The notes under the pieces are model-generated. The model had not been told where the DNA came from. It saw only the letters and a list, made by a program, of their open reading frames with translations, and searched no databases. DNA of 24,386 nt from a virus (lineage: Duplodnaviria > Caudoviricetes), in IMG/VR virus record IMGVR_UViG_3300036790_000144, positions 1 to 24,386 of that record, one strand, 5' to 3'. The position numbers and the translations under genes are program-made. Shown one piece after another: positions 1,946-12,552 of the stretch (within the stretch, counting starts at the first letter, position 1; each line of letters opens with the position of its first letter).

Positions 1946-2533
1946 ATGCCCGCGCTTAAAAATGCCAAGCACGAGGCGGTCGCGCAGGCGTTCATCGCCG
2001 ACAAAGAGCGGATCGGCTGGCGCGCCTACAAGCACGCGTTCCCGAATAGCTCGCGCCACGCGTCCGAGACGGCGTGGTCGCGGCTGCTGAAAACCGCGGA
2101 GTTTAAGGCGCGGATCGCGGCATTGCAGGACGCCGCTGCAGCGCGCGCCGTCGAGCTCGGCGTCATGAGCGCGCAGGAAGTGCTGCGCGAGCTCTCCAAG
2201 ATCGGCCGCGCCAACGTGTCCGATTACGTCCGGGTCACCAGCGAAGGCGATCCGGCGATCGATCTCTCCAAGCTGAGCCGCGACCAGGCGGCCGGCCTGG
2301 TGTCGGTCAGCGTCGAGGATTTCACCGACGGCCGCGGCGACGACGCCCGCGAGGTCAAGCGCGTCACCATTCGCCTCGGCGACAAACGCGGCGCGCTCCG
2401 CGATCTCGGCCAGCACCACAAGCTGTTCACGGAGCGCCTCGAGATCGATGACAAGAAAGGTCTCGCGGACAAGCTCGCCGCCGCGCGCCGCCGCGCCGCC
2501 GGCGTCCGCGACGGCAAAGCAAGATCCCGCTGA
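1946..2533 (+). CDS. terS: Terminase small subunit (195 aa)
   Basis: 'MPALKNAKHEAVAQAF...AY' HTH-like N-terminus, 'EVLRELSKIG' helix, 'IRLGDKRGALRDLGQHHKLFTER' C-terminal motif; directly upstream of TerL. Confidence 0.88.
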   Translation: MPALKNAKHEAVAQAFIADKERIGWRAYKHAFPNSSRHASETAWSRLLKTAEFKARIAALQDAAAARAVELGVMSAQEVLRELSKIGRANVSDYVRVTSEGDPAIDLSKLSRDQAAGLVSVSVEDFTDGRGDDAREVKRVTIRLGDKRGALRDLGQHHKLFTERLEIDDKKGLADKLAAARRRAAGVRDGKARSR

Positions 2534-4016
2534 GGAGCTGTTCGAACTGGCGGCGAGCTGCGCGCGCGATCCGCTGCGCTATGTGATGCTCGCCTATCCG
2601 TGGGGCGAGAAGGGCGGTCCGCTCGAGGACTTCGACGGCCCGGACCTCTGGCAGACCGAGATCCTGCGCTACATCCGCGACCACCTCGGCACCAAAGAGC
2701 CGGTCCGCGTTGCCATCGCCGGCGGCGTTGGCCCTGGTAAGACGGCGCTCGCGGCCTGGATCGCCGATTGGGGCATGACGACGTTTCCGGATTGCCGCGG
2801 GCGAGTCACCGCCAACACCGGCAAGCAGCTCACGATGTCGAGCTGGCCCGAGATTGCCAAGTGGCACAGCATGTCGCTGTTCGCCCCCTGGTTTCAGCTG
2901 CAGTCGCGCTCGCTGGTCTCGGCCGATCCGAAGCACCGGCAGAACTGGACGTTTGACGCCTTCACCTGGGAAGAGGCCAATCCCGAGACGATCCGCGGCT
3001 TCCACAACGCCGGCAAGCGCAGCATCACCATCAACGACGAGACCTCGGCGACGCCCGACGCGGTGCTGAGCGCGGAAGAGGGCTTTCTCTCCGACGAGGG
3101 CACCGAGCGCATCTGGCTGCTGCTCGGCAACCCGACGCGGCCGACCGGCTATTTCCGGGAATGCTTCCCGGGCGGGCTGCGGCATCAGCTTTGGAAGGCT
3201 TTCAACATCGACACGCGCCAGGCGCGGATGTCGAACAAGACGCAGATCAAAGAGTGGATCGACTTCTACGGGCTCGATCACGACTTCGTCCGCGTCAACG
3301 TGCTGTCGCAGTTTCCGCGCGCCAGCGCCACGCAATTCATCGCTTCCGATATCGTCACCGGGGCGGCGTCGCCCGAACGCGACCCGCCGGTGACGATCTA
3401 CGACCCGCTGGTGATCGGCGTCGACATTGCGGCTTACGGCGACGATCAGACGGTGATCCGCTTCCGCCGCGGCCGCGACGCGCGCACCATCCCGGCGCAG
3501 AAATATCGCGGCCTCGACATGATGCAGATCGCCGCCCGCATCGCCGAGGCCAACGAGCGGCATCGTCCCGATGCCATCTTCATCGACCAGGGCAACATGG
3601 GGCTTGGCGTCGTCGACCGCTGCCGCCAGCTGCAACTGCCGGTCTACGGCATCGACTTCGGCGCCGAGCCGGTCGGCGGCGATCCGACCGCGGCCTACTA
3701 CAATCGCCGCGCCGAGATGTACGGCAAGCTGCGCGACTGGCTGCCGCACGGCGCGATCGACGACGACCCCGAGCTCAAGTCCAACCTGACCGCGGTGCAG
3801 TACGGCTACAAGCTGCGCAACGGCCGCGACGCCATCCTGCTCGAGCGCAAGAAGGACATGAAGGCCCGCGGCCTGGCGTCGCCCGACGACGGCGATGCGC
3901 TGGCGTTGACCTTTGCTTTACCGGTTGCGCCCAGTGATCACACCGCGCAGCTGTCGCGGCGCGGCCGCGGCCACCAGGTGGACTACGATCCTTTCGCGGC
4001 GGGGTATCGGCGATGA
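2448..4016 (+). CDS. terL: Terminase large subunit (start codon uncertain)
   Basis: Walker A-like GGVGPGKT, Walker B-like ITINDE, 'LLGNPTR' motif, nuclease motifs 'IGVDIA..GDDQTVI', 'IFIDQG' and 'SPDDGDALALTF'; ends VDYDPFAAGYRR. Confidence 0.95.
   Translation: MTRKVSRTSSPPRAAAPPASATAKQDPAEELFELAASCARDPLRYVMLAYPWGEKGGPLEDFDGPDLWQTEILRYIRDHLGTKEPVRVAIAGGVGPGKTALAAWIADWGMTTFPDCRGRVTANTGKQLTMSSWPEIAKWHSMSLFAPWFQLQSRSLVSADPKHRQNWTFDAFTWEEANPETIRGFHNAGKRSITINDETSATPDAVLSAEEGFLSDEGTERIWLLLGNPTRPTGYFRECFPGGLRHQLWKAFNIDTRQARMSNKTQIKEWIDFYGLDHDFVRVNVLSQFPRASATQFIASDIVTGAASPERDPPVTIYDPLVIGVDIAAYGDDQTVIRFRRGRDARTIPAQKYRGLDMMQIAARIAEANERHRPDAIFIDQGNMGLGVVDRCRQLQLPVYGIDFGAEPVGGDPTAAYYNRRAEMYGKLRDWLPHGAIDDDPELKSNLTAVQYGYKLRNGRDAILLERKKDMKARGLASPDDGDALALTFALPVAPSDHTAQLSRRGRGHQVDYDPFAAGYRR
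3977..4016 (+). repeat. terL 3'-end repeat, copy 1 (VDYDPFAAGYRR-stop)
   Basis: ggtggactacgatcctttcgcggcggggtatcggcgatga; 30/40 nt identical to 4718-4757 by manual count. Confidence 0.85.
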
Positions 4017-4708
4017 ATGATGTTTGTTGCAGGGTGGGTGCCGGCTGGCTCTGCGAGGCCGCCGACGCGCCGGACCAATCCTGGATGAGCGATGCCTTCT
4101 GGGTACGCGCTAATGATCGCCTCGGCCATCGCACAACGGTGCCACACCGAACTGGCGTCATGCAGATCTATGACGCGGTTCGTTTCGTTAAAGCTGGCGA
4201 TCGCGTAAGACAGCTTTTCTACGGCGACCAATGGTGCGAGCCGGCTGAGATCGCGGGATTCGCTGCGCGCTACGGCACGCTCGACCCGGAACGAGCGCAG
4301 ACCTCGGTCTGTGTCCTCGATGCTCGGGGTGACGGGCCTTCTTTAACCTCGGCCTGGCTGATCGCGTGGGGTCCGCGTTCAATCTTTATGGTGACGCCTG
4401 ACGGCGAGCCGTCAGTCGGCGGCGGCGAGATGGCCCTCGTTGTTAGGGATTGGCGATTCGCAATCCGCATCGCCAACATCGGCCACGACGTTGCGGAAAT
4501 TACGCTGCTGGAGTTGCTCGATCGAGCGCTTCTGATGTTGCCTGAAGGGCGCCCGAGCTCGGTTCGCGTTGGCGCGCTTGATCCCGCAGCGTATCGTCCC
4601 GTCTTCTACATGAATGCCCGGCTGCGCCGGCTGCTTGGAGCCGATGATTTCCGTCATGTTTTTATCCGGGCAGTTGATCTTCGGGACGATGAGCAGCGCG
4701 TGACCTGA
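4013..4708 (+). CDS. Shortened paralog of the major capsid protein (231 aa)
   Basis: Collinear blocks match the MCP at 11515-12552: LFYGD/SFYGN, GFAARY/GLSARF, TSAWLIAWG/TSIWLCCWG, RDWRFAIRIANI/KNWQYFCRIANI, LLDRALLMLP/LMSKALYRMP, RPVFYMN/RPAFYWN, FRHVFIRAVD/FRGVPIRNCD. ATGA overlap with the terL stop. Confidence 0.85.
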   Translation: MNDVCCRVGAGWLCEAADAPDQSWMSDAFWVRANDRLGHRTTVPHRTGVMQIYDAVRFVKAGDRVRQLFYGDQWCEPAEIAGFAARYGTLDPERAQTSVCVLDARGDGPSLTSAWLIAWGPRSIFMVTPDGEPSVGGGEMALVVRDWRFAIRIANIGHDVAEITLLELLDRALLMLPEGRPSSVRVGALDPAAYRPVFYMNARLRRLLGADDFRHVFIRAVDLRDDEQRVT

Positions 4709-4717
4709 TGCGATCGC

Positions 4718-4757
4718 GGTGGACTATGACCCTTTTGCTCCAAGGTATCGGCGCTAG
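4718..4757 (+). repeat. terL 3'-end repeat, copy 2 (VDYDPFAPRYRR-stop), orphan fragment
   Basis: ggtggactatgacccttttgctccaaggtatcggcgctag; 10/12 residues identical to the TerL tail; in-frame TGA upstream at 4701-4703. Confidence 0.85.
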
Positions 4758-4772
4758 GCACGTGGGGCCACA

Positions 4773-4970
4773 ATGCTAGACGTCGTGCTGTTTTGTGGCG
4801 GGGTCATCATCAGCCAAGTCGGCGTTGCCGCCTGGGCGGTGTGCGCGCCGGGCTCGTTCATGGCGCATTATCTGCCGCGGCAAAAAGCGCTCGCCGACGC
4901 CGCTCGCGCGACGCGCTACGACCGCGCCGTCATCTATCGTCGGGGCAAGGCGCCTGAGGTGGTCGGCTGA
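4773..4970 (+). CDS. Small hypothetical protein with hydrophobic N-terminus (65 aa)
   Basis: 'VVLFCGGVIISQVGVAAWAVC' possible TM segment; TGATG coupling to the next ORF. Confidence 0.55.
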   Translation: MLDVVLFCGGVIISQVGVAAWAVCAPGSFMAHYLPRQKALADAARATRYDRAVIYRRGKAPEVVG

Positions 4971-5188
4971 TGCGGCCGCGCCCCGTCACTGACGACGAGA
5001 GTCCCGCGGTCGCCGCGCTGCGTCGCGCGATGAGCGCCGGAATTATCGCCACCGTGACCAGCGTGTCGATCGACGGCCTGGTGACCTTCGAATGGTGCGA
5101 CAATCAAGCGCCTGGCGGCATCGTGCGCGCCACGATGCACGAGGAGCTCGCCGACATGCTGTTCGAGGAGATCCGTTACCTGCAATGA
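4970..5188 (+). CDS. Hypothetical protein (72 aa)
   Basis: Coupled on both sides (TGATG at 4968-4972, ATGA at 5185-5188). Confidence 0.65.
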   Translation: MRPRPVTDDESPAVAALRRAMSAGIIATVTSVSIDGLVTFEWCDNQAPGGIVRATMHEELADMLFEEIRYLQ

Positions 5189-5859
5189 CCGACAAACCGA
5201 CGCGCCTCACCATCCGACTCGGCGAGGATGCGCGGACCTATTTGCAGGCTGAAGCTGCGAAGCGTGGCCTCGACGAGGCCGCCTTTGCGCGGATGCTGAT
5301 CTACGAGCGCATGAATGGTGCTGCTCCAATCGTTCCGAGCACCGCTCGCCGTTACGAGCTCGCTCACCCTGCGGTCGGCGGCGAGGTCAGCGACGCGACG
5401 CAGCCGCATCTCGGCGACGGTCGGGACGTCGACCTCGATGCCGCCGCCACTGACGCGGATCTCGCTGCCGCCGGCGAACCGCGCGCCGAAGAGTTCGAAG
5501 TCGAGGCGGATGCCGACGGCGGCAATCCGGAAGCGATCGCCACCTTCGACGCGCTGTTGGCGGCGGGGCCGAGTTTCCTCGACAGCCTGATTGCCGAACG
5601 CCGCGCGACCGTGCCGGCGCCGCAGCCGCGCTTGCCAATGCGCGCGCCGCAGCGCCAGCCGGCGATCGCGCCGCGCAACTACCGCGCCCAGCGCCGCGGG
5701 CCGCAGCAGGGCCTGCAGCCGTCCTACGGGCCCGGTTCGCTGACGCGGCCGCTCGGCGTCAACGAATACTCGATCGGCGACGTTCAATTCGGCGACGGCT
5801 CGCGCAATGTCGGCCGCCAGAACATGGGGCACTTCGGTGTCGGCCCGCGGCGGCGCTGA
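5185..5859 (+). CDS. Putative ribbon-helix-helix DNA-binding protein with long disordered tail (224 aa)
   Basis: Start reassigned to ATG 5185 (ATGA overlap). 'PTRLTIRLGEDARTYLQAEAAKRGLDEAAFARMLI' fits the Arc/CopG strand-helix-G-helix pattern. Confidence 0.7.
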   Translation: MTDKPTRLTIRLGEDARTYLQAEAAKRGLDEAAFARMLIYERMNGAAPIVPSTARRYELAHPAVGGEVSDATQPHLGDGRDVDLDAAATDADLAAAGEPRAEEFEVEADADGGNPEAIATFDALLAAGPSFLDSLIAERRATVPAPQPRLPMRAPQRQPAIAPRNYRAQRRGPQQGLQPSYGPGSLTRPLGVNEYSIGDVQFGDGSRNVGRQNMGHFGVGPRRR

Positions 5860-6078
5860 GTGAGCGAATTCGCCGGCTACCGCGATGCGGACACGCGCAA
5901 GCGCCTGGTCGCTTTCGTCGCCGGCCAGCGCGGCATGAGCGCGCAGAATGCCGAGCGCGAGCTGATGCGGCTCAACCATGTCGGCCTCGCTTACGTGCAC
6001 CAGGACATGGTCGGCGCCGAAGAGACGGCGCAAGTCGCGATCAGCGATTACGACCCGCTGGCGATCGGGAGGACCTGA
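5860..6078 (+). CDS. Hypothetical protein ending in a TerL-tail-like motif (72 aa)
   Basis: GTG abuts the upstream stop and TGA abuts the next ATG; ends VAISDYDPLAIGRT. Confidence 0.7.
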   Translation: MSEFAGYRDADTRKRLVAFVAGQRGMSAQNAERELMRLNHVGLAYVHQDMVGAEETAQVAISDYDPLAIGRT

Positions 6079-6342
6079 ATGCCGCGTTTCGAGTACCGCA
6101 TCGAAAGCTTCACGCATCCGCACGGCGTCCACAATCCGACGCCCTCGATCGCCGAGTTCCTGGCGCGGGTGAACGCGCTCGGCGCCGAGGGCTGGATGGT
6201 CATTCCCGCCAGCGGGTTTGCGCCGGGCATCGTGCTGCTCGTGCGCGAGTCGCGCGATGCGCCAGGGCCGAATTGGGACGAGATCGGCCGCATCGGCGGC
6301 GTCAGCGGCAAGCCGAAGCCGCCCGCTCCGGGAGACGCCTGA
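6079..6342 (+). CDS. DUF4177-like small protein (87 aa)
   Basis: 'FEYRI....VNALGAEGWMVI' matches the EYK...LN.LG.EGWELV pattern; GGAGGA upstream. Confidence 0.65.
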   Translation: MPRFEYRIESFTHPHGVHNPTPSIAEFLARVNALGAEGWMVIPASGFAPGIVLLVRESRDAPGPNWDEIGRIGGVSGKPKPPAPGDA

Positions 6343-6647
6343 TGGACCGCGCCACCTTCAAGTTGCTGATGGCGATCGGCGTGCTGCTCTATGGCGCGCT
6401 ATATCTGTGCGCCGTCGTGCTGCTCGGCCTGATCATGAGCGTGTGGCCGGCGTCGCTGCTCGCGGTTGCCGCGATGGGCGTGAGCTACCTCAGCTACATC
6501 GCGCAACTTTTCTGTCAGCACGATGCGCCAGCCGACACGCCGGTTGCGACGTCGCTTGCACTCTTGCTGGTGTGGCTATCGATGCTGCTCGGCGCCGGCG
6601 CCGGCCTAATGCTCCTCTTCGCCGAGGTCCCGTCATGGGCTTTCTGA
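6342..6647 (+). CDS. Small integral membrane protein (101 aa, about 3 TM segments)
   Basis: ATG 6342 in a TGATG overlap; three long hydrophobic runs. A holin or exclusion role cannot be established from sequence. Confidence 0.7.
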   Translation: MDRATFKLLMAIGVLLYGALYLCAVVLLGLIMSVWPASLLAVAAMGVSYLSYIAQLFCQHDAPADTPVATSLALLLVWLSMLLGAGAGLMLLFAEVPSWAF

Positions 6648-6862
6648 CGCCATCGATGCCGTCGAGCCCGCCGCCGCCGCCGGCGCCGCCGCCGGCCGCC
6701 AATCCGCCGACCTATGCCAATGCCGGCGTGCAGGCTGTCGGTGCCGCTGCCGCCAAGCGCGCCGCCGCGGCTTCGGGCTTCGGCGCCGACGGCACGATCC
6801 TGACTTCGCCCCAAGGCGCATCGCTCGCGCCGACGGCCGGCAAATCGCTGACGGGCCAGTGA
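6635..6862 (+). CDS. Small pre-portal virion-associated protein (75 aa)
   Basis: MGFLTPSMPSSPPPPPAPPP...GTILTSPQG...KSLTGQ: Pro-rich N-terminus and a TILT..G...K.L.G C-terminus typical of the small gene preceding the portal in this phage group. Confidence 0.75.
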   Translation: MGFLTPSMPSSPPPPPAPPPAANPPTYANAGVQAVGAAAAKRAAAASGFGADGTILTSPQGASLAPTAGKSLTGQ

Positions 6863-7011: not shown

Positions 7012-8871
7012 ATGCTGTTCGCCGATCGGATTGCGCGCTACGAGCGCGCCAGTCCGCTCCTGCTGGCGATGGAGTCGCCGACCGCTCCGGTCGAGCTCCG
7101 CTACGAGCGCGACAACCAGGATTGGGCGCAGACCCGCGAGCATCTCGAATCGCGCATGACGATGGCGCGCTCCTGGCGCTATTCGTTCCTCGAACATTGG
7201 TCGCTGTGTGCGCTCTACACCAATCCGCGGCGCTCGCTGTGGCTGAGCCAGGGCGGCGTCGACCAGCCGGTGCCGAACGCGATGGTGCGCGGCTCGCCGG
7301 TCAACCAGGCGATCGTCGACCCGACGCCGGTCTATGCGCTGCAGGTCTGCACCGCCGGGCTGACCAACGGCCTGATGTCGTCGTCGCGGCCATGGTTCAA
7401 GCTCAAGCCGGCGCTGTCCAACATCAAGATCGACCGCCAGGGCCAGCTCTGGTTCGAAGAGGTCGAGGACCGCGTCTATCGCGTGATGGCCGAGTCGAAT
7501 TTCTACGACTGCGGCGTGCAGATGTTCAAAGACCTGATCAGCTTCGCCACCTCGCCGATGCTGATCTACGAGGACGTCGAGAACATCATCAACTGCCAAG
7601 TCCCCGTCGTCGGCGAATACTTCCTGTTCATCGGCTCGAACTTCCGCGTCGAAGGCTTCTCGCGGCTCTATGTGCTGACGGTGTCGCAGCTGGTCGAGGA
7701 GTTCGGGCTCGACGATTGCCCGCCGCAGGTGAGCTCGCTGTGGGAGCAGAAGGGCGCCAGCCTCGACAAGGAATTCATCGTCGCCCACATGATCGAGCCG
7801 AACTTCGCCATCCAGCGCACTGGCGAGGCCAAGCCGGTCGGGCGGCTCAAGGGCAACTATACCTTCCGCGAGCATTTCTGGATCTACGGGCTCGCTTCGG
7901 CGAAGCCGCTCTCGGTGCGCGGCTTCCACGAACTGCCGTTCATCGCGCCGCGCTGGCAGGTCAACGGCAACGATCCCTACGGCACCGATTGCCCGGGCAT
8001 GGTCACGCTCGGCGACAACATGCAGCTGCAGATCGAGACCCGGCGCAAGGCCGAGCTGCTCGAGAAGATGGTGCGGCCGCCGCTCAACGCGCCGCCCGAA
8101 CTGAAGAACCAGCCGTCGTCGATCCTGCCCGGCCACGTCAATTACACCAACAACACCAGCAACGGCATGAAGCCGGTGTTCGAGGTCGACGCCCAGGCGC
8201 TGCCCGGCATCACCGCCGACCTCAAAGACATCCAGGCGCGCATCAAGAGCGGGTTCTTCAACGACCTGTTCCTGATGCTCGCCGAGGCGACCAAGGACAT
8301 GACGGCCTACGAGGTCGCGCAGCGCCAGCAGGAAAAGCTGCAGGTGCTCGGCCCGGTGATCGAGCGGTTCCAGAACGAGGGCGCTTCGCCGGCGATCCGG
8401 CGCATCGTCGCGGTGATGGCGCGCAAGCGCCTGTTGCCGCCGATGCCGCCGTCGCTGCGCGGCGTGCCGATCCATATCGAATACATCTCGATGCTGGCGA
8501 TGGCGCAGCGGGCGCTGAAAACTGCCGGCGCCGAACGCATGCTGGCGGTCACCGAGAAGGTGGCGCCGATGTATCCGGACGCGCCGGGGCTGATCAATTT
8601 CGAGAAGCTGCTGCGTAACTACAACGACGATCTCGGCAATTCGCTCGAGCTGATGAACGACGACAGCGCCTTTGCCGACTGGAAGGCCGCGCGCGCCAAG
8701 GCGCAGCAGGGCCAGCAGGCGCAGCAAGGCGCCACCGAAACCATTCCGGCGATGGCGGCCGCGGCGAAGGATTTAGGAACTGTTGACCTTGGCGGTGGTG
8801 TAAATGCCGCGCAGCTCATGGCCGGCGCCGCCGGCGGCAGTGGGGCTGCGCCACCGGCCGGGGGAATGTGA
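7012..8871 (+). CDS. Portal protein (head-to-tail connector), 619 aa
   Basis: 'GLMSSSRPWFKL', 'MAESNFY', 'PRWQVNGNDPYG', 'MTAYEVAQRQQEKLQVLGPVIER', 'IEYISMLAMAQR' are characteristic of T7 gp8/BPP-1-type connectors. Confidence 0.95.
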   Translation: MLFADRIARYERASPLLLAMESPTAPVELRYERDNQDWAQTREHLESRMTMARSWRYSFLEHWSLCALYTNPRRSLWLSQGGVDQPVPNAMVRGSPVNQAIVDPTPVYALQVCTAGLTNGLMSSSRPWFKLKPALSNIKIDRQGQLWFEEVEDRVYRVMAESNFYDCGVQMFKDLISFATSPMLIYEDVENIINCQVPVVGEYFLFIGSNFRVEGFSRLYVLTVSQLVEEFGLDDCPPQVSSLWEQKGASLDKEFIVAHMIEPNFAIQRTGEAKPVGRLKGNYTFREHFWIYGLASAKPLSVRGFHELPFIAPRWQVNGNDPYGTDCPGMVTLGDNMQLQIETRRKAELLEKMVRPPLNAPPELKNQPSSILPGHVNYTNNTSNGMKPVFEVDAQALPGITADLKDIQARIKSGFFNDLFLMLAEATKDMTAYEVAQRQQEKLQVLGPVIERFQNEGASPAIRRIVAVMARKRLLPPMPPSLRGVPIHIEYISMLAMAQRALKTAGAERMLAVTEKVAPMYPDAPGLINFEKLLRNYNDDLGNSLELMNDDSAFADWKAARAKAQQGQQAQQGATETIPAMAAAAKDLGTVDLGGGVNAAQLMAGAAGGSGAAPPAGGM

Positions 8872-9104
8872 TGCTCGCCGCCGACATCGCGCGCTGCCGC
8901 CATAGCATAATAGCGGTGGTGGTGGAGACGGTGGGATCGTGCGACCACTGCGGCTCGCTGATCGCCCTGCAGTGCATTCGCCATTTGGGCGGCCGCCGGT
9001 ATTATTTCCCGCGTTGCTCTGGCACCTCGCGGGGTCCGGGACATCCTGATCTTCACCCCGATCAGTTCCGTCAGGCCGCACCGGACGTCTGGGAAGAGAC
9101 GTGA
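8868..9104 (+). CDS. Hypothetical Cys/His-rich protein (78 aa; ATG 8871 is an alternative start)
   Basis: Overlaps the portal stop; contains CDHC plus additional Cys/His. Confidence 0.5.
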   Translation: MMLAADIARCRHSIIAVVVETVGSCDHCGSLIALQCIRHLGGRRYYFPRCSGTSRGPGHPDLHPDQFRQAAPDVWEET

Positions 9105-9220
9105 TCGCCGCGCCGCCGGATGTTGCGGTCTATCTGACGGCCGATCAAGCCGTCGACCTGGTCGGTTTGTTGGCGCTGGCGATCGCGCTCTGCATCGGCT
9201 GCCTTGGCGGAGGACATTGA
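9101..9220 (+). CDS. Small single-TM peptide absent from the ORF track (39 aa)
   Basis: GTGA overlap at 9101-9104 and TGATG overlap at 9218-9222; 'LVGLLALAIALCIGCLG' hydrophobic run. Confidence 0.5.
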   Translation: MIAAPPDVAVYLTADQAVDLVGLLALAIALCIGCLGGGH

Positions 9221-9426
9221 TGGCGTTTGGGAAGGGCGATCGGGTTCAGCTCAACGCCGACGGCGTGAAGCTCGATCCCGCCGGGAAACGCGGCCACGGC
9301 ACTGTGCGTGGACCCTCGCGCGGTGTCTTCGCGGCGGGCTGCTACATCGTGAAATGGGACAACCTAAAAACGCCGGCGTCGATCAGCGGCGGGTTTATCC
9401 GCCGGGAGGACCCGCAGAGTGGCTGA
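9220..9426 (+). CDS. Small SH3/KOW-like beta-barrel protein (68 aa)
   Basis: GGAGGA upstream; 'FGKGDRVQL...GTVRG...YIVKWD' pattern. Confidence 0.6.
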   Translation: MAFGKGDRVQLNADGVKLDPAGKRGHGTVRGPSRGVFAAGCYIVKWDNLKTPASISGGFIRREDPQSG

Positions 9427-9922
9427 GGACCGCCCGGACGCACCGGATCTCGATCCGGACTTCACGCCGCAGGAGAACATCGAGGCCGATCATCGCGGCT
9501 CGATTATGTTCGAATATGAGAGCTACGAGCGCGTGGTCGAGGGTCTCAAGCTGGCGTCCGACGGCGCGCGCAACATGGCCCGCTTCAACGAGCCGGATCT
9601 GTGGAACCCGCTGGCGCAGTTCTTCGACGCCCTGCGCAAGGCGATCGTGCAGCTCGCCGGCCTCGATCGCGGCGCCGACACGCGCGAGAGCGCCCAGCAA
9701 TGGGGCGGGACCGGCGTCACGCGTTCCGACGCGATGTCGCGCATCAGCAATGGCCTCAAAGGCGCCGCTTCGGCCGCCAACCAGATCGCCCAGGTGCAGC
9801 GCAAGGATCCGCGCTGGCTGCGCTACGCCATCCAGATCGACCGGCTGCGCGACAAGTCGCAACAGCTGGCGCTCGCCGGCTCGCCGCTTCTGGTCGACAG
9901 CGGCTGGGCGCGCCGGCACTGA
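9419..9922 (+). CDS. Hypothetical helical protein (167 aa)
   Basis: GGAGGA upstream of GTG 9419; strong G/C third-position bias; no family recognised. Confidence 0.75.
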   Translation: MAEDRPDAPDLDPDFTPQENIEADHRGSIMFEYESYERVVEGLKLASDGARNMARFNEPDLWNPLAQFFDALRKAIVQLAGLDRGADTRESAQQWGGTGVTRSDAMSRISNGLKGAASAANQIAQVQRKDPRWLRYAIQIDRLRDKSQQLALAGSPLLVDSGWARRH

Positions 9923-10438: not shown

Positions 10439-11446
10439 ATGACGACTGCCACGGGAACACCGGGCGCGCAGACTGCGGCGCCCGGCGGCGAAGCTATGCC
10501 GGCTGCGGCACCGGGTCCGGCGCCTGGCGCCGGGTCTGGCGCTGCCGATGGCGCGGCCGCTGCGGCGCCTCCTGCAGCGGCCGCGCCTGCAGCCGACGCG
10601 GCTGTGGCAGCAGCTGCAGCACCGGCAGCAGCTGCCGCGCCCGCCGCGAGCGATGCGGCAAAACCTGCCGCGGATGCGGCGAAGCCGGCTGCCGATGCAA
10701 CGGCGGCGGCGAAAGATGCGCCGGCTGGCGGCAAGAACGAATTCACGCCGTCGCTGCTCGATGCAGCCGCGGCGACCGACAAGAAACCGGGCGGCGGCAA
10801 GACCGAGCCCGGCAAGGATGCCAAGGCGGGCGACGCAAAGCCCGGCGAAGCGAAGCCCGGCGAGGCCGTCAAGGCCGAGCCCGGCAAAGACGGCGCCCCC
10901 GGCGACACGCCACCGGCGCCGATCGAGTACGCCTTCAGCTATCCCGAAGGCGTGGATCCGGCCTCCGTCAACGCGGAGCGCATGACCCAATTCACCGGCG
11001 TTCTCAACGAAGGCCGCATGAAGCCTGAGCTCGGGCAAAAACTCCTCGACATGCACCTCTCCGAGGTGACCGAGGCAGCCAAGAAAATCGCGCAGAACCA
11101 ATGGGACGTCTTCAATCGCCAGCAGACCAACTGGCGCGAAGAGGTGATGTCCGATCCGCAGCTCGGCGGCGCCCGGCACCAGACCGCGGTCAAAGAGATC
11201 ATGAGCGTGGTCGACGCCTATGCCGGCACTGCCGATGAGCGAAAGGGTCTTCTGGACGCCTTCCGCGTCACCGGGATCGCCAACAACCCGCACTTCCTTC
11301 GGTTTCTGCACCGCGCCAGCGCCGACCTCGCTCGCGAGGCCGTCCCGCATCCGGCGCCACCGCCGCGCGCAGCTGCGCCGACGGGGCGCGAGCGCGGCTT
11401 GAACCGCTACGCGAAGACGACGCCCGCCGCCAACGGCGGACGCTGA
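10439..11446 (+). CDS. Capsid scaffolding/assembly protein (335 aa)
   Basis: Ala/Pro-rich disordered N-half; 'IEYAFSYPEG', 'WREEVMSDPQLGG', 'TGIANNPHFLRFLHR'; immediately upstream of the MCP. Confidence 0.85.
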   Translation: MTTATGTPGAQTAAPGGEAMPAAAPGPAPGAGSGAADGAAAAAPPAAAAPAADAAVAAAAAPAAAAAPAASDAAKPAADAAKPAADATAAAKDAPAGGKNEFTPSLLDAAAATDKKPGGGKTEPGKDAKAGDAKPGEAKPGEAVKAEPGKDGAPGDTPPAPIEYAFSYPEGVDPASVNAERMTQFTGVLNEGRMKPELGQKLLDMHLSEVTEAAKKIAQNQWDVFNRQQTNWREEVMSDPQLGGARHQTAVKEIMSVVDAYAGTADERKGLLDAFRVTGIANNPHFLRFLHRASADLAREAVPHPAPPPRAAAPTGRERGLNRYAKTTPAANGGR

Positions 11447-11514: not shown

Positions 11515-12552
11515 ATGTCCTATCTCACGCTTGCCGATTGGGCGCGCCGGGTCGGTCCCGACGGCTCGATCGACGACATCGCCGAGCTGCTCGCGCAGTC
11601 CAACGAGATTTTCGACGATCTTTTGATCCGCGAGGGCAACCAGGCGCTCGGTCACACCGGCATCGTGCGCACCGGCTTGCCGCAAGGCACCTGGCGCAAC
11701 TTCTACCAGGGCGTTGCCTTCACCAAGTCGACCACGGCCCAGGTCACCGACACCATCGGCGAGCTCGTCGCTTATTCGCGCGTCGATCGCTCGCTCGCCG
11801 AGCTCGACGGCCAGGTCGCCGAGCTGCGCTTGTCGGAGGACAACGCGCACGTCCAAGGCCTGTCGCAGCAGATGGCGACCACCTCGTTCTATGGCAACGA
11901 AGCGGTGACGCAGGCCCAGTTCACCGGGCTCTCCGCGCGCTTCAACACCATCTCGACTGCGAACGCGCAAAACGCGGTCAACGTGCTCAACGCCGGCGGG
12001 GCTGCCGCGGCCAACACTTCGATCTGGCTGTGCTGCTGGGGCGAGCAGACCGGCTTCGGCTTCTTCCCGAAGGCGTCGAAAGCGGGCCTCGTGTTCGAAG
12101 ACAAGGGCGACATCCGCCCGGGCTTCGACGCCAACAACCACGAGTTCGAAGCTTACACCTCGCTCTTCATGTGGAAGATGGGGGTCCACATCAAGAACTG
12201 GCAGTATTTCTGCCGCATCGCCAACATCGACACGACCACCGCTGGGCTGGCCGGTGCGACGCCGCCGGACCTGTTCGCGCTGATGAGCAAGGCGCTCTAC
12301 CGCATGCCGACGGCGGGCCGTCGCATGAGCGGCATCACCAAGACCGACGCGCCGAACCAGCCGACGCCGTCGGTGCGGCCGGCATTCTATTGGAACCGCA
12401 CGGCGGGCGAATACGGCGCCATCCAGGCGATTCGCGACAAGAACGTTCTGCTGCGCCCGACCGAGTACGACGGGCAGCCCATCCTTGAGTTCCGCGGTGT
12501 GCCTATCCGCAACTGCGATGCGCTGCTCAACAGCGAAGCCACCCTCTCGTAA
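11515..12552 (+). CDS. Major capsid protein, BPP-1 Bbp17-like (345 aa)
   Basis: 'LTLADWARR', 'ELLAQSNEI', 'VRTGLP..TWR', 'FYGN', 'TSIWL..WG', 'RIANID', 'FRGVPIR.CDALLNSEA'; GGAG upstream. Confidence 0.93.
   Translation: MSYLTLADWARRVGPDGSIDDIAELLAQSNEIFDDLLIREGNQALGHTGIVRTGLPQGTWRNFYQGVAFTKSTTAQVTDTIGELVAYSRVDRSLAELDGQVAELRLSEDNAHVQGLSQQMATTSFYGNEAVTQAQFTGLSARFNTISTANAQNAVNVLNAGGAAAANTSIWLCCWGEQTGFGFFPKASKAGLVFEDKGDIRPGFDANNHEFEAYTSLFMWKMGVHIKNWQYFCRIANIDTTTAGLAGATPPDLFALMSKALYRMPTAGRRMSGITKTDAPNQPTPSVRPAFYWNRTAGEYGAIQAIRDKNVLLRPTEYDGQPILEFRGVPIRNCDALLNSEATLS

Follow-up and report, generated by a model that had tools for sequence, protein, structure and literature searches.

The HK97-type fold almost always serves to build shells. 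T4 gp24, the vertex protein, is a capsid paralogue encoded beside the main capsid gene, and it is a fixed structural gene with the full fold. The closest described relatives of the gene reported here are the major capsid proteins (MCPs) of BPP-1 (Bbp17), epsilon15 (gp7) and Carin1 (PF20911, NF045672; 3j4u, 3j40, 8cjz), with which it shares clear sequence homology, the same core fold and the same element order. It also resembles Ccm of SaPIbov5, described as a divergent capsid homologue (24% to the helper capsid protein) with a use other than main shell protein (PMC8569155), and, in its proposed mode of action, DSAD1, an inhibitor of DSR2 that competes with a structural trigger for the sensor binding site (PMC11087589). 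Here, we describe mini-MCP, a reduced capsid-protein paralogue encoded at 4013-4708 of IMGVR_UViG_3300036790_000144, a complete virus record of 24,386 bases (the window, i.e. the whole stretch analyzed). We found that mini-MCP belongs to a natural, conserved and, by prediction, core-only version of the fold (~220 residues, ~100 divergent copies), and we tentatively read it as a shell-incompetent capsid mimic, made late, which may be a decoy that occupies host capsid sensors without firing them.

The mini-MCP gene and its predicted structure

We found that the open reading frame (ORF) at 4013-4708 runs uninterrupted from ATG 4013 to TGA 4708 (231 aa) and that its ATG overlaps the stop codon of the terminase large subunit gene (terL) as ATGA; the database gene call begins at GTG 4034 (224 aa). 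The original prediction held that this ORF is homologous to the resident MCP (11515-12552), and BLASTP (28% over 170 columns, E 7e-13) and Pfam PF20911 GP7 (87.4 bits against a cut-off of 27, E 1e-24) bear this out. The phrog_212 major head protein (E 3e-6) and PDB chains 8cjz, 3j4u and 3j40 (E 8e-24 to 9e-21) were matched too, and the NF045672 full-length equivalog model scored 43.9 bits against a cut-off of 75. PADLOC matched 0 of 7 proteins, and the ESM Atlas search gave no usable match.

Four internal deletions had been proposed. The sequence is truly missing, but the first two of these are a single 48-aa loss between the GH and FYG motifs (31 aa vs. 79 aa in the resident MCP), which leaves ~17 residues of uncertain register. 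The other two remove 26 aa (27 vs. 53) and 20 aa (20 vs. 40), and the N-terminal arm (N-arm) helix and a 6-aa loop are gone as well. The claim that third codon positions are richer in A/T than in the flanking genes holds: the G+C content at third positions (GC3) is 0.66 and the codon adaptation index (CAI) is 0.40, the lowest among the 22 correctly framed genes compared (one mis-framed row was ignored), relative to 0.77-0.91 and 0.52-0.79, respectively, for the other genes compared. In contrast, the words taken as typical of the family are rare among the 94 other minis (H[RK]TT[VI] in none, VRDWR in 3 and [FY]YMN in 11); hence, the foreign origin inferred from them must rest on other evidence. 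Such evidence exists, since mini-MCP has 30-31% identity to the resident MCP on shared columns, and this MCP ranks only 64th of 74 and 90th of 112 full-length MCPs by similarity.

The features of the window discussed here are as follows; L111 is a sister phage, and X2 is a sequencing run.

2448..4016, + strand: terL, 5' of the mini-MCP start and overlapping it
3977..4016, + strand: functional terL 3' end (VDYDPF..YRR, stop); first copy of the flanking repeat
4013..4708, + strand: mini-MCP, reduced capsid-protein paralogue, 231 aa; alternative start GTG 4034
4017..4967, + strand: strain-variable 951-bp cassette with mini-MCP, the terL-end relic and a 65-aa ORF; 205 other bases instead in L111 and the run X2 main strain
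4718..4757, + strand: relic second terL 3' end, frame and stop as in copy 1, mostly synonymous differences; likely a recombination scar
4773..4970, + strand: 65-aa ORF inside the cassette; no known family matched
7012..8871, + strand: portal (head-tail connector)
10439..11446, + strand: likely scaffold protein; matches phrog_458, and its position suggests the role
11515..12552, + strand: resident full-length MCP, BPP-1/epsilon15 gp7 type

The window encodes an integrase, the terminase small subunit (terS), terL, the portal, the likely scaffold, the BPP-1/epsilon15-type MCP and tail genes, and the sequencing runs that match it are soil metagenomes. The tyrosine integrase (908-1858) lies directly 5' of terS on the same strand, an unusual location that is also seen in L111. 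Residues 268-284 of the resident MCP form a 15-17-aa A-domain insertion that is present in the MCPs of many mini-carrying phages and missing from those of BPP-1 and epsilon15.

Three other origins for the ORF were considered and rejected. A frameshift fusion of terL and mini-MCP is not favored: the mini frame is open from 3938 (-1 relative to terL), with no slippery heptamer seen by eye in 3938-4013, and the other copies follow other genes. An assembly artifact is contradicted by one run X1 contig (which may be the source) that covers the region without a difference, and by two 151-nt records of run X2 that match the gene exactly; runs X3 and X4, which hold small shares, gave no usable piece of the gene. 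Recent duplication of the resident MCP is incompatible with the distance between the two proteins given above.

The predicted model of mini-MCP, built from a 95-row alignment, has a predicted local distance difference test score (pLDDT) of 92.5 and a predicted template modeling score (pTM) of 0.89. It superposes on BPP-1 Bbp17 (3j4u) with Z 22.9 and a root-mean-square deviation of 2.1 Å over 196 residues (next chain, Z 7.3), and Foldseek was concordant (3j4u, 8cjz, 3j40). The model retains the A-domain core with BPP topology and the same element order as in BPP. Its remaining parts are the A-domain sheet of five strands, the helices that go with this sheet and the segment that follows the spine helix.

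Deletions were mapped by sequence alignment to 3j4u and by the secondary structure of two models (mini-MCP and resident MCP). In resident MCP numbering, residues 6-22 (N-arm helix), 192-218 (the long hairpin of the P-domain), 244-249 (a short loop) and 306-325 are absent across the mini family, as are the E-loop and roughly two thirds of the spine helix within 57-115. Segment 306-325 corresponds to BPP-1 loop 293-309 by alignment to 3j4u. The longest N-terminal helix has 10 residues in mini-MCP (61-70) relative to 26 in the resident MCP (101-126), and an extended E-loop, a 7-turn spine helix, a three-stranded P-domain sheet and an N-arm, all features of the MCP family, are missing. These positions agree with the expectation that the deletions fall in the E-loop, part of the spine helix and protruding hairpins. 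The published account of BPP-1 assigns the chainmail rings to the E-loop and P-domain, the lining of the central capsomer channel to loop 293-309 and cement-protein binding to the N-terminal loop (PMC3863775). Since the lattice elements are missing from its predicted anatomy, we infer that mini-MCP is a compact capsid core which cannot build a shell. Complex prediction for two resident MCPs and one mini-MCP scored 0.00, which is evidence neither way.

The family of reduced capsid paralogues

Sequence searches gave 170 proteins, comprising 45 full-length MCPs (325-365 aa), 2 longer proteins and 123 shorter ones. We retained 94 of the shorter proteins; of the 29 excluded, 13 were parts of full MCPs, 11 were fragments, 4 were near-duplicates and 1 was extended at its C-terminus. 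The 94 further minis (198-266 aa) have three deletions in common with mini-MCP: the GH-FYG spacing is 28-47 aa vs. 75-82 aa in the 45 full MCPs, the WG-DW spacing is 20-37 aa vs. 51-64 aa and the FY-IR spacing is 14-39 aa vs. 39-58 aa. A FastTree tree built from 186 shared columns separates all 95 minis from 74 full MCPs by a single branch (support 0.999). Similarly, IQ-TREE with 25 minis, 25 full MCPs and 1 intermediate gave support of 95/87 for the branch between minis and full MCPs. The root of the tree was not inferred; since minis depend on MCP-bearing phages, we assume that minis derive from MCPs.

Minis are diverse, with a median identity of 34% among themselves relative to 46% for the sampled MCPs. 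For 21 pairs from 7 loci, synonymous sites are saturated (proportions of synonymous and nonsynonymous differences, 0.68-0.92 and 0.33-0.56, respectively) with no stops, and in the 6 mini pairs with a finite synonymous distance, the rough ratio of nonsynonymous to synonymous rates (omega) is 0.13-0.37. All 7 copies located at the DNA level are open along the available stretch; one ends at a contig edge. The frame had been predicted to be intact rather than that of a decaying pseudogene, and the open relatives with the same deletions, the omega values and the significant alignment to the MCP agree. These results support the view that mini-MCP is an intact gene under purifying selection. Judged from these sequences, the family of ~100 proteins is old and widespread, and mini-MCP is neither a recent or decaying copy nor a one-off.

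The residues invariant in minis are mostly those of the MCP core (S169, W175, D228, R234, N237, Y292 and E341). Among other positions, MCP columns W38, T145, D147, A151, Q152 and A154 vary less in minis than in the sampled MCPs; full MCPs of the carriers' own clade frequently have the T.D...AQ.A..V.D motif as well.

Searches beyond these sets found few members. Among the matches listed for GenBank phages (30 of 70 records), none was at mini level; they have 23-29% identity, typical of full MCPs. None of the 17 plasmid records matched reached mini level either, and one N-terminal motif scan of GTDB genomes gave 11 stretches with 0 minis. A motif scan of metagenomes gave 13 stretches with 2 minis, and those of IMG/VR gave 0 minis in four scans, 2 of 11 loci in one and 3 of 87 in another; motif scans detect only part of the family, so zero counts are not proof of absence. 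Longer, fused forms were not seen among 8000 candidates, which is weak evidence.

Genomic setting of mini-MCP genes

We found the mini gene in the virion-gene operon of related podophages, on the virion-gene strand, in 8 of 8 loci and at six different positions.

Window: behind terL
L122, L136: directly behind the portal
L117, L186: between portal and scaffold, with other genes around
L184: ahead of the homologue of window gene 17692
L091: behind the homologue of tail gene 18517
L090: after a T7 gp14-like gene; truncated at the contig end

Its start overlaps the upstream stop codon in 5 of these loci, and a scan for one promoter type, sigma-70-like promoters on the + strand, found none in 3700-5300 of the window (weak evidence). 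The carriers encode terminase, portal, scaffold and MCP; a full MCP accompanies the mini in all 5 contigs that cover the head region, as a separate gene behind the scaffold, and the mini is not at the MCP position. Since the mini gene is coupled inside the late operon, we infer that it is expressed together with the virion genes of its carrier, MCP included, through translational coupling.

The GC3 of the mini is lower than that of its co-resident MCP in 5 of 5 carriers (0.66/0.89, 0.70/0.80, 0.62/0.80, 0.68/0.80 and 0.44/0.68). Minis do not track the MCPs beside them: the co-resident MCP ranks 90, 56, 30, 5 and 29 of 112 by similarity to its mini, and the correlation between minis and co-resident MCPs is absent (rho -0.22, 10 non-independent pairs).

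In the sister phage L111, whose left flank is ~97% and right flank 91% identical, 205 other bases replace window 4017-4967. The main strain of run X2 has the same replacement at depth 64, and the two records of that run that match mini-MCP have a depth of ~3; L111 and run X2 are possibly not independent. Of the relatives retrieved with terL or MCP, the 6 that are at least 94% complete all have the MCP and no mini. Hence, mini-MCP is an accessory, strain-variable gene. Overall, within flanks of up to 10 kb, 4 of 129 distinct MCP-bearing loci have a mini, and each of these 4 was retrieved by way of its mini. As in a moron, the insert lies between conserved genes and has lower G+C (GC3 0.66), and the sister genome lacks it.

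The mini-MCP gene is flanked by a 36-nt repeat of the terL 3' end (3977-4012 vs. 4718-4753, 81% alike). By hand count, 5 of 7 changed sense codons in the relic (4718-4757) are synonymous, and the stop is kept. Hence, the repeat suggests that recombination between related phages joined two functional terL ends. In place of the cassette, L111 has two tandem paralogues (8514-8940) of window ORF 4970-5188 (42% and 97% alike). The intervals between terL and portal and between portal and scaffold (4017-6650 and 8874-9427) are variable hot spots, with further segments replaced relative to L111 and run X2 around 5315-5445, 6143-6331 and 8874-9427. Another sign of operon shuffling is the 5185-5859 gene, which is behind terL in the window and ahead of terL in L112 (9060-9704). 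The 72-aa ORF at 5860-6078 and its L112 homologue (11533-11745) end in a DYDPL motif that resembles the DYDPF end of terL; our guess is that this ending imitates the terminase tail or serves as a common docking motif.

L117 has three capsid-fold genes in one genome, since its head module contains, along with the mini and the full MCP, a second capsid paralogue of 285 aa (8380-9237). This paralogue has lost the E-loop tip and the centre loop, has kept the spine helix and P hairpin and branches between minis and full MCPs; with caution for long branches, it may be an intermediate of stepwise reduction. The terminase gene is split in two pieces in two mini carriers (L122:4564-7000 and L117:3854-5911); the first L122 piece contains a long stretch of inserted sequence that looks like an intein by eye, accompanied by an HNH-like ORF on the opposite strand, and portal and MCP are flanked by more HNH-like ORFs.

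Possible roles and relation to known systems

Our favored proposal, which is possible but short of probable, is that an ancient family of capsid paralogues was pared stepwise to the core read by sensors, giving a trigger-derived decoy in the late operon that jams capsid-sensing defenses. Mini-MCP would be expressed late with the virion genes by translational coupling and would remain unassembled, so free subunit would persist while the true capsid protein is consumed. It would then bind sensors that read the A-domain (of the Avs7/8/10 type) and act as a competitive inhibitor, lacking the contacts through E-loop and P-domain that these sensors would require for activation. Since mini-MCP is presumably late-made and non-assembling, and is optional, mobile and uncoupled from its own MCP, it looks like a conflict gene; the lack of tracking of the co-resident MCP is expected if its partner is not the capsid of its own phage.

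A preprint (10.64898/2026.01.04.697583) describes Avs7, Avs8 and Avs10 as binding the capsomer-forming A-domain face of the monomeric MCP, Avs7 as making only surface contacts with the P-domain as well as the E-loop, and MCP binding as clamping the Avs sensor, which leads to activation. Since CapRel and Lit are described there as reading short sequence motifs and the Avs sensors as wrapping the A-domain, the decoy idea would suit Avs7/8/10 better than CapRel or Lit. Competing with a structural trigger is already known as a mode of anti-defense, as reported for DSAD1 and DSR2 (PMC11087589).

Several points weigh against a decoy. The Avs sensors are described as recognizing the conserved core and leaving extensions unbound (10.64898/2026.01.04.697583), so a monomer reduced to this core could switch them on instead of blocking them. 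The missing capsomer-centre loop may be part of the A-domain surface that sensors read, and the poorer codon use relative to the co-resident MCP (5 of 5 carriers) may point to weak expression, which would disadvantage a decoy that has to act stoichiometrically. The family is rare, with 0 MCP-found loci having a mini within the available flank. Avs reading of capsids with BPP-1 topology is not established in the accessible part of 10.64898/2026.01.04.697583.

Mini-MCP could instead be a weapon between mobile elements: it may enter or cap the growing capsomers of a rival phage, or sequester the scaffold of a rival or the capsid-redirecting proteins of satellites, with the carrier's own capsid being insensitive. 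Ccm, reported as a capsid homologue that derails head assembly of another element, is a precedent (PMC8569155), and Rcm is a second for interference with competing phages or satellites (PMC12409344). The predicted retention of the A-domain wedge that packs capsomers, the patchy, mobile distribution of a conflict gene and the lack of tracking of the carrier's MCP fit such a weapon. However, mini-MCP lies in the virion operon of its carrier, coupled to its neighbors and with no sigma-70-like promoter found in the stretch scanned (weak evidence), so it is unlikely to protect a lysogen. A dominant-negative role is also weakened, since the overlap with upstream stops in this operon means that mini-MCP would be made with, and would first meet, the MCP of its own carrier. 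Scaffolds usually bind capsid proteins at spine and P-domain surfaces, which mini-MCP lacks. Ccm, moreover, is described as retaining the N-arm, E-loop and spine helix and as being built into the shell (PMC8569155). We consider such a weapon unlikely.

Recruitment of the capsid core to an unrelated function, the binding of a host protein, a nucleic acid or a small molecule, or as a deliberate sensor trigger that aborts infection by rivals, is rather unlikely. The columns conserved more in minis than in MCPs may mark a new surface, and minis diverge faster than MCPs (34% vs. 46% median identity), but the invariant residues are largely those of the MCP core, the T.D...AQ.A..V.D motif is frequent in full MCPs of the carriers' clade, no catalytic constellation or fusion was seen in minis (weak evidence) and a trigger inside its own late operon would harm the carrier. 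An optional helper of carrier morphogenesis is quite unlikely, whether it would hold capsid subunits in solution as a chaperone or brake or form a minor part of the virion close to the portal or tail. It would explain why minis are always in the virion operon, adjoin the portal in 2 of 8 loci and lie between portal and scaffold in 2 more, as well as the two reduced paralogues beside the MCP in L117; yet mini-MCP is dispensable in near-identical and in complete relatives, its position is not fixed, its sequence is independent of the co-resident MCP and the elements for lattice and cement contacts (N-arm and E-loop) are missing. A decaying, functionless duplicate of a capsid gene is barely credible and is already refuted at the family level: the low GC3 and CAI and the adjoining recombination scar would fit, but ~100 open-frame relatives share the deletions at a median identity of 34%, synonymous sites are saturated and the compact model is confident. 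Databases favor open frames, yet the 7 copies located at the DNA level are open too.

If the decoy reading is true, mini-MCP would be an anti-defense protein that derives from the very trigger of the defense, and it could readily be used to uncouple binding from activation in systems that sense capsids (Avs7/8/10, Thoeris and CapRel). If assembly interference is true, it would be a weapon of phage against phage or of phage against satellite. Under either reading, it would give structural studies a minimal, soluble capsid core, and the minis together with the putative L117 intermediate form a series that illustrates how a capsid protein loses its lattice arms. Databases label members of the family as capsid or hypothetical proteins. 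We found no description of a family of reduced capsid paralogues in phages in the full-text literature searched, with most subscription journals outside it. In their accessible parts, an anti-defense database preprint (10.1101/2025.06.06.658234) has 0 occurrences of 'capsid' and no capsid-derived decoy, and a 2026 review (PMC13728456) has no capsid-derived decoy. Hence, the mini family is real, a variant of a repurposed capsid homologue, and apparently undescribed.

Relative to the MCPs of BPP-1, epsilon15 and Carin1, mini-MCP is ~110 aa shorter and is without the N-arm helix, E-loop, most of the spine helix, P hairpin and centre loop; it scores below the NCBIfam cut-off, is off the MCP position (it is not the single gene directly behind the scaffold) and coexists with a full MCP. 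Since it departs from gp7/Bbp17 in full length, lattice elements and gene position, mini-MCP should not be classed as a major capsid protein. Unlike T4 gp24, it is optional, mobile and reduced. Ccm is described as having the whole HK97 fold, forming shell pentamers and being satellite-encoded (PMC8569155), whereas mini-MCP is phage-encoded, stripped of lattice elements and found beside the MCP of a carrier that possesses its own head genes. For DSAD1, the accessible part of its report describes an overlapping site and no descent from the trigger (PMC11087589), whereas mini-MCP is a true paralogue of the trigger with a putative anti-defense action; as would be expected of a competitive anti-defense protein, it is an accessory, strain-variable phage gene.

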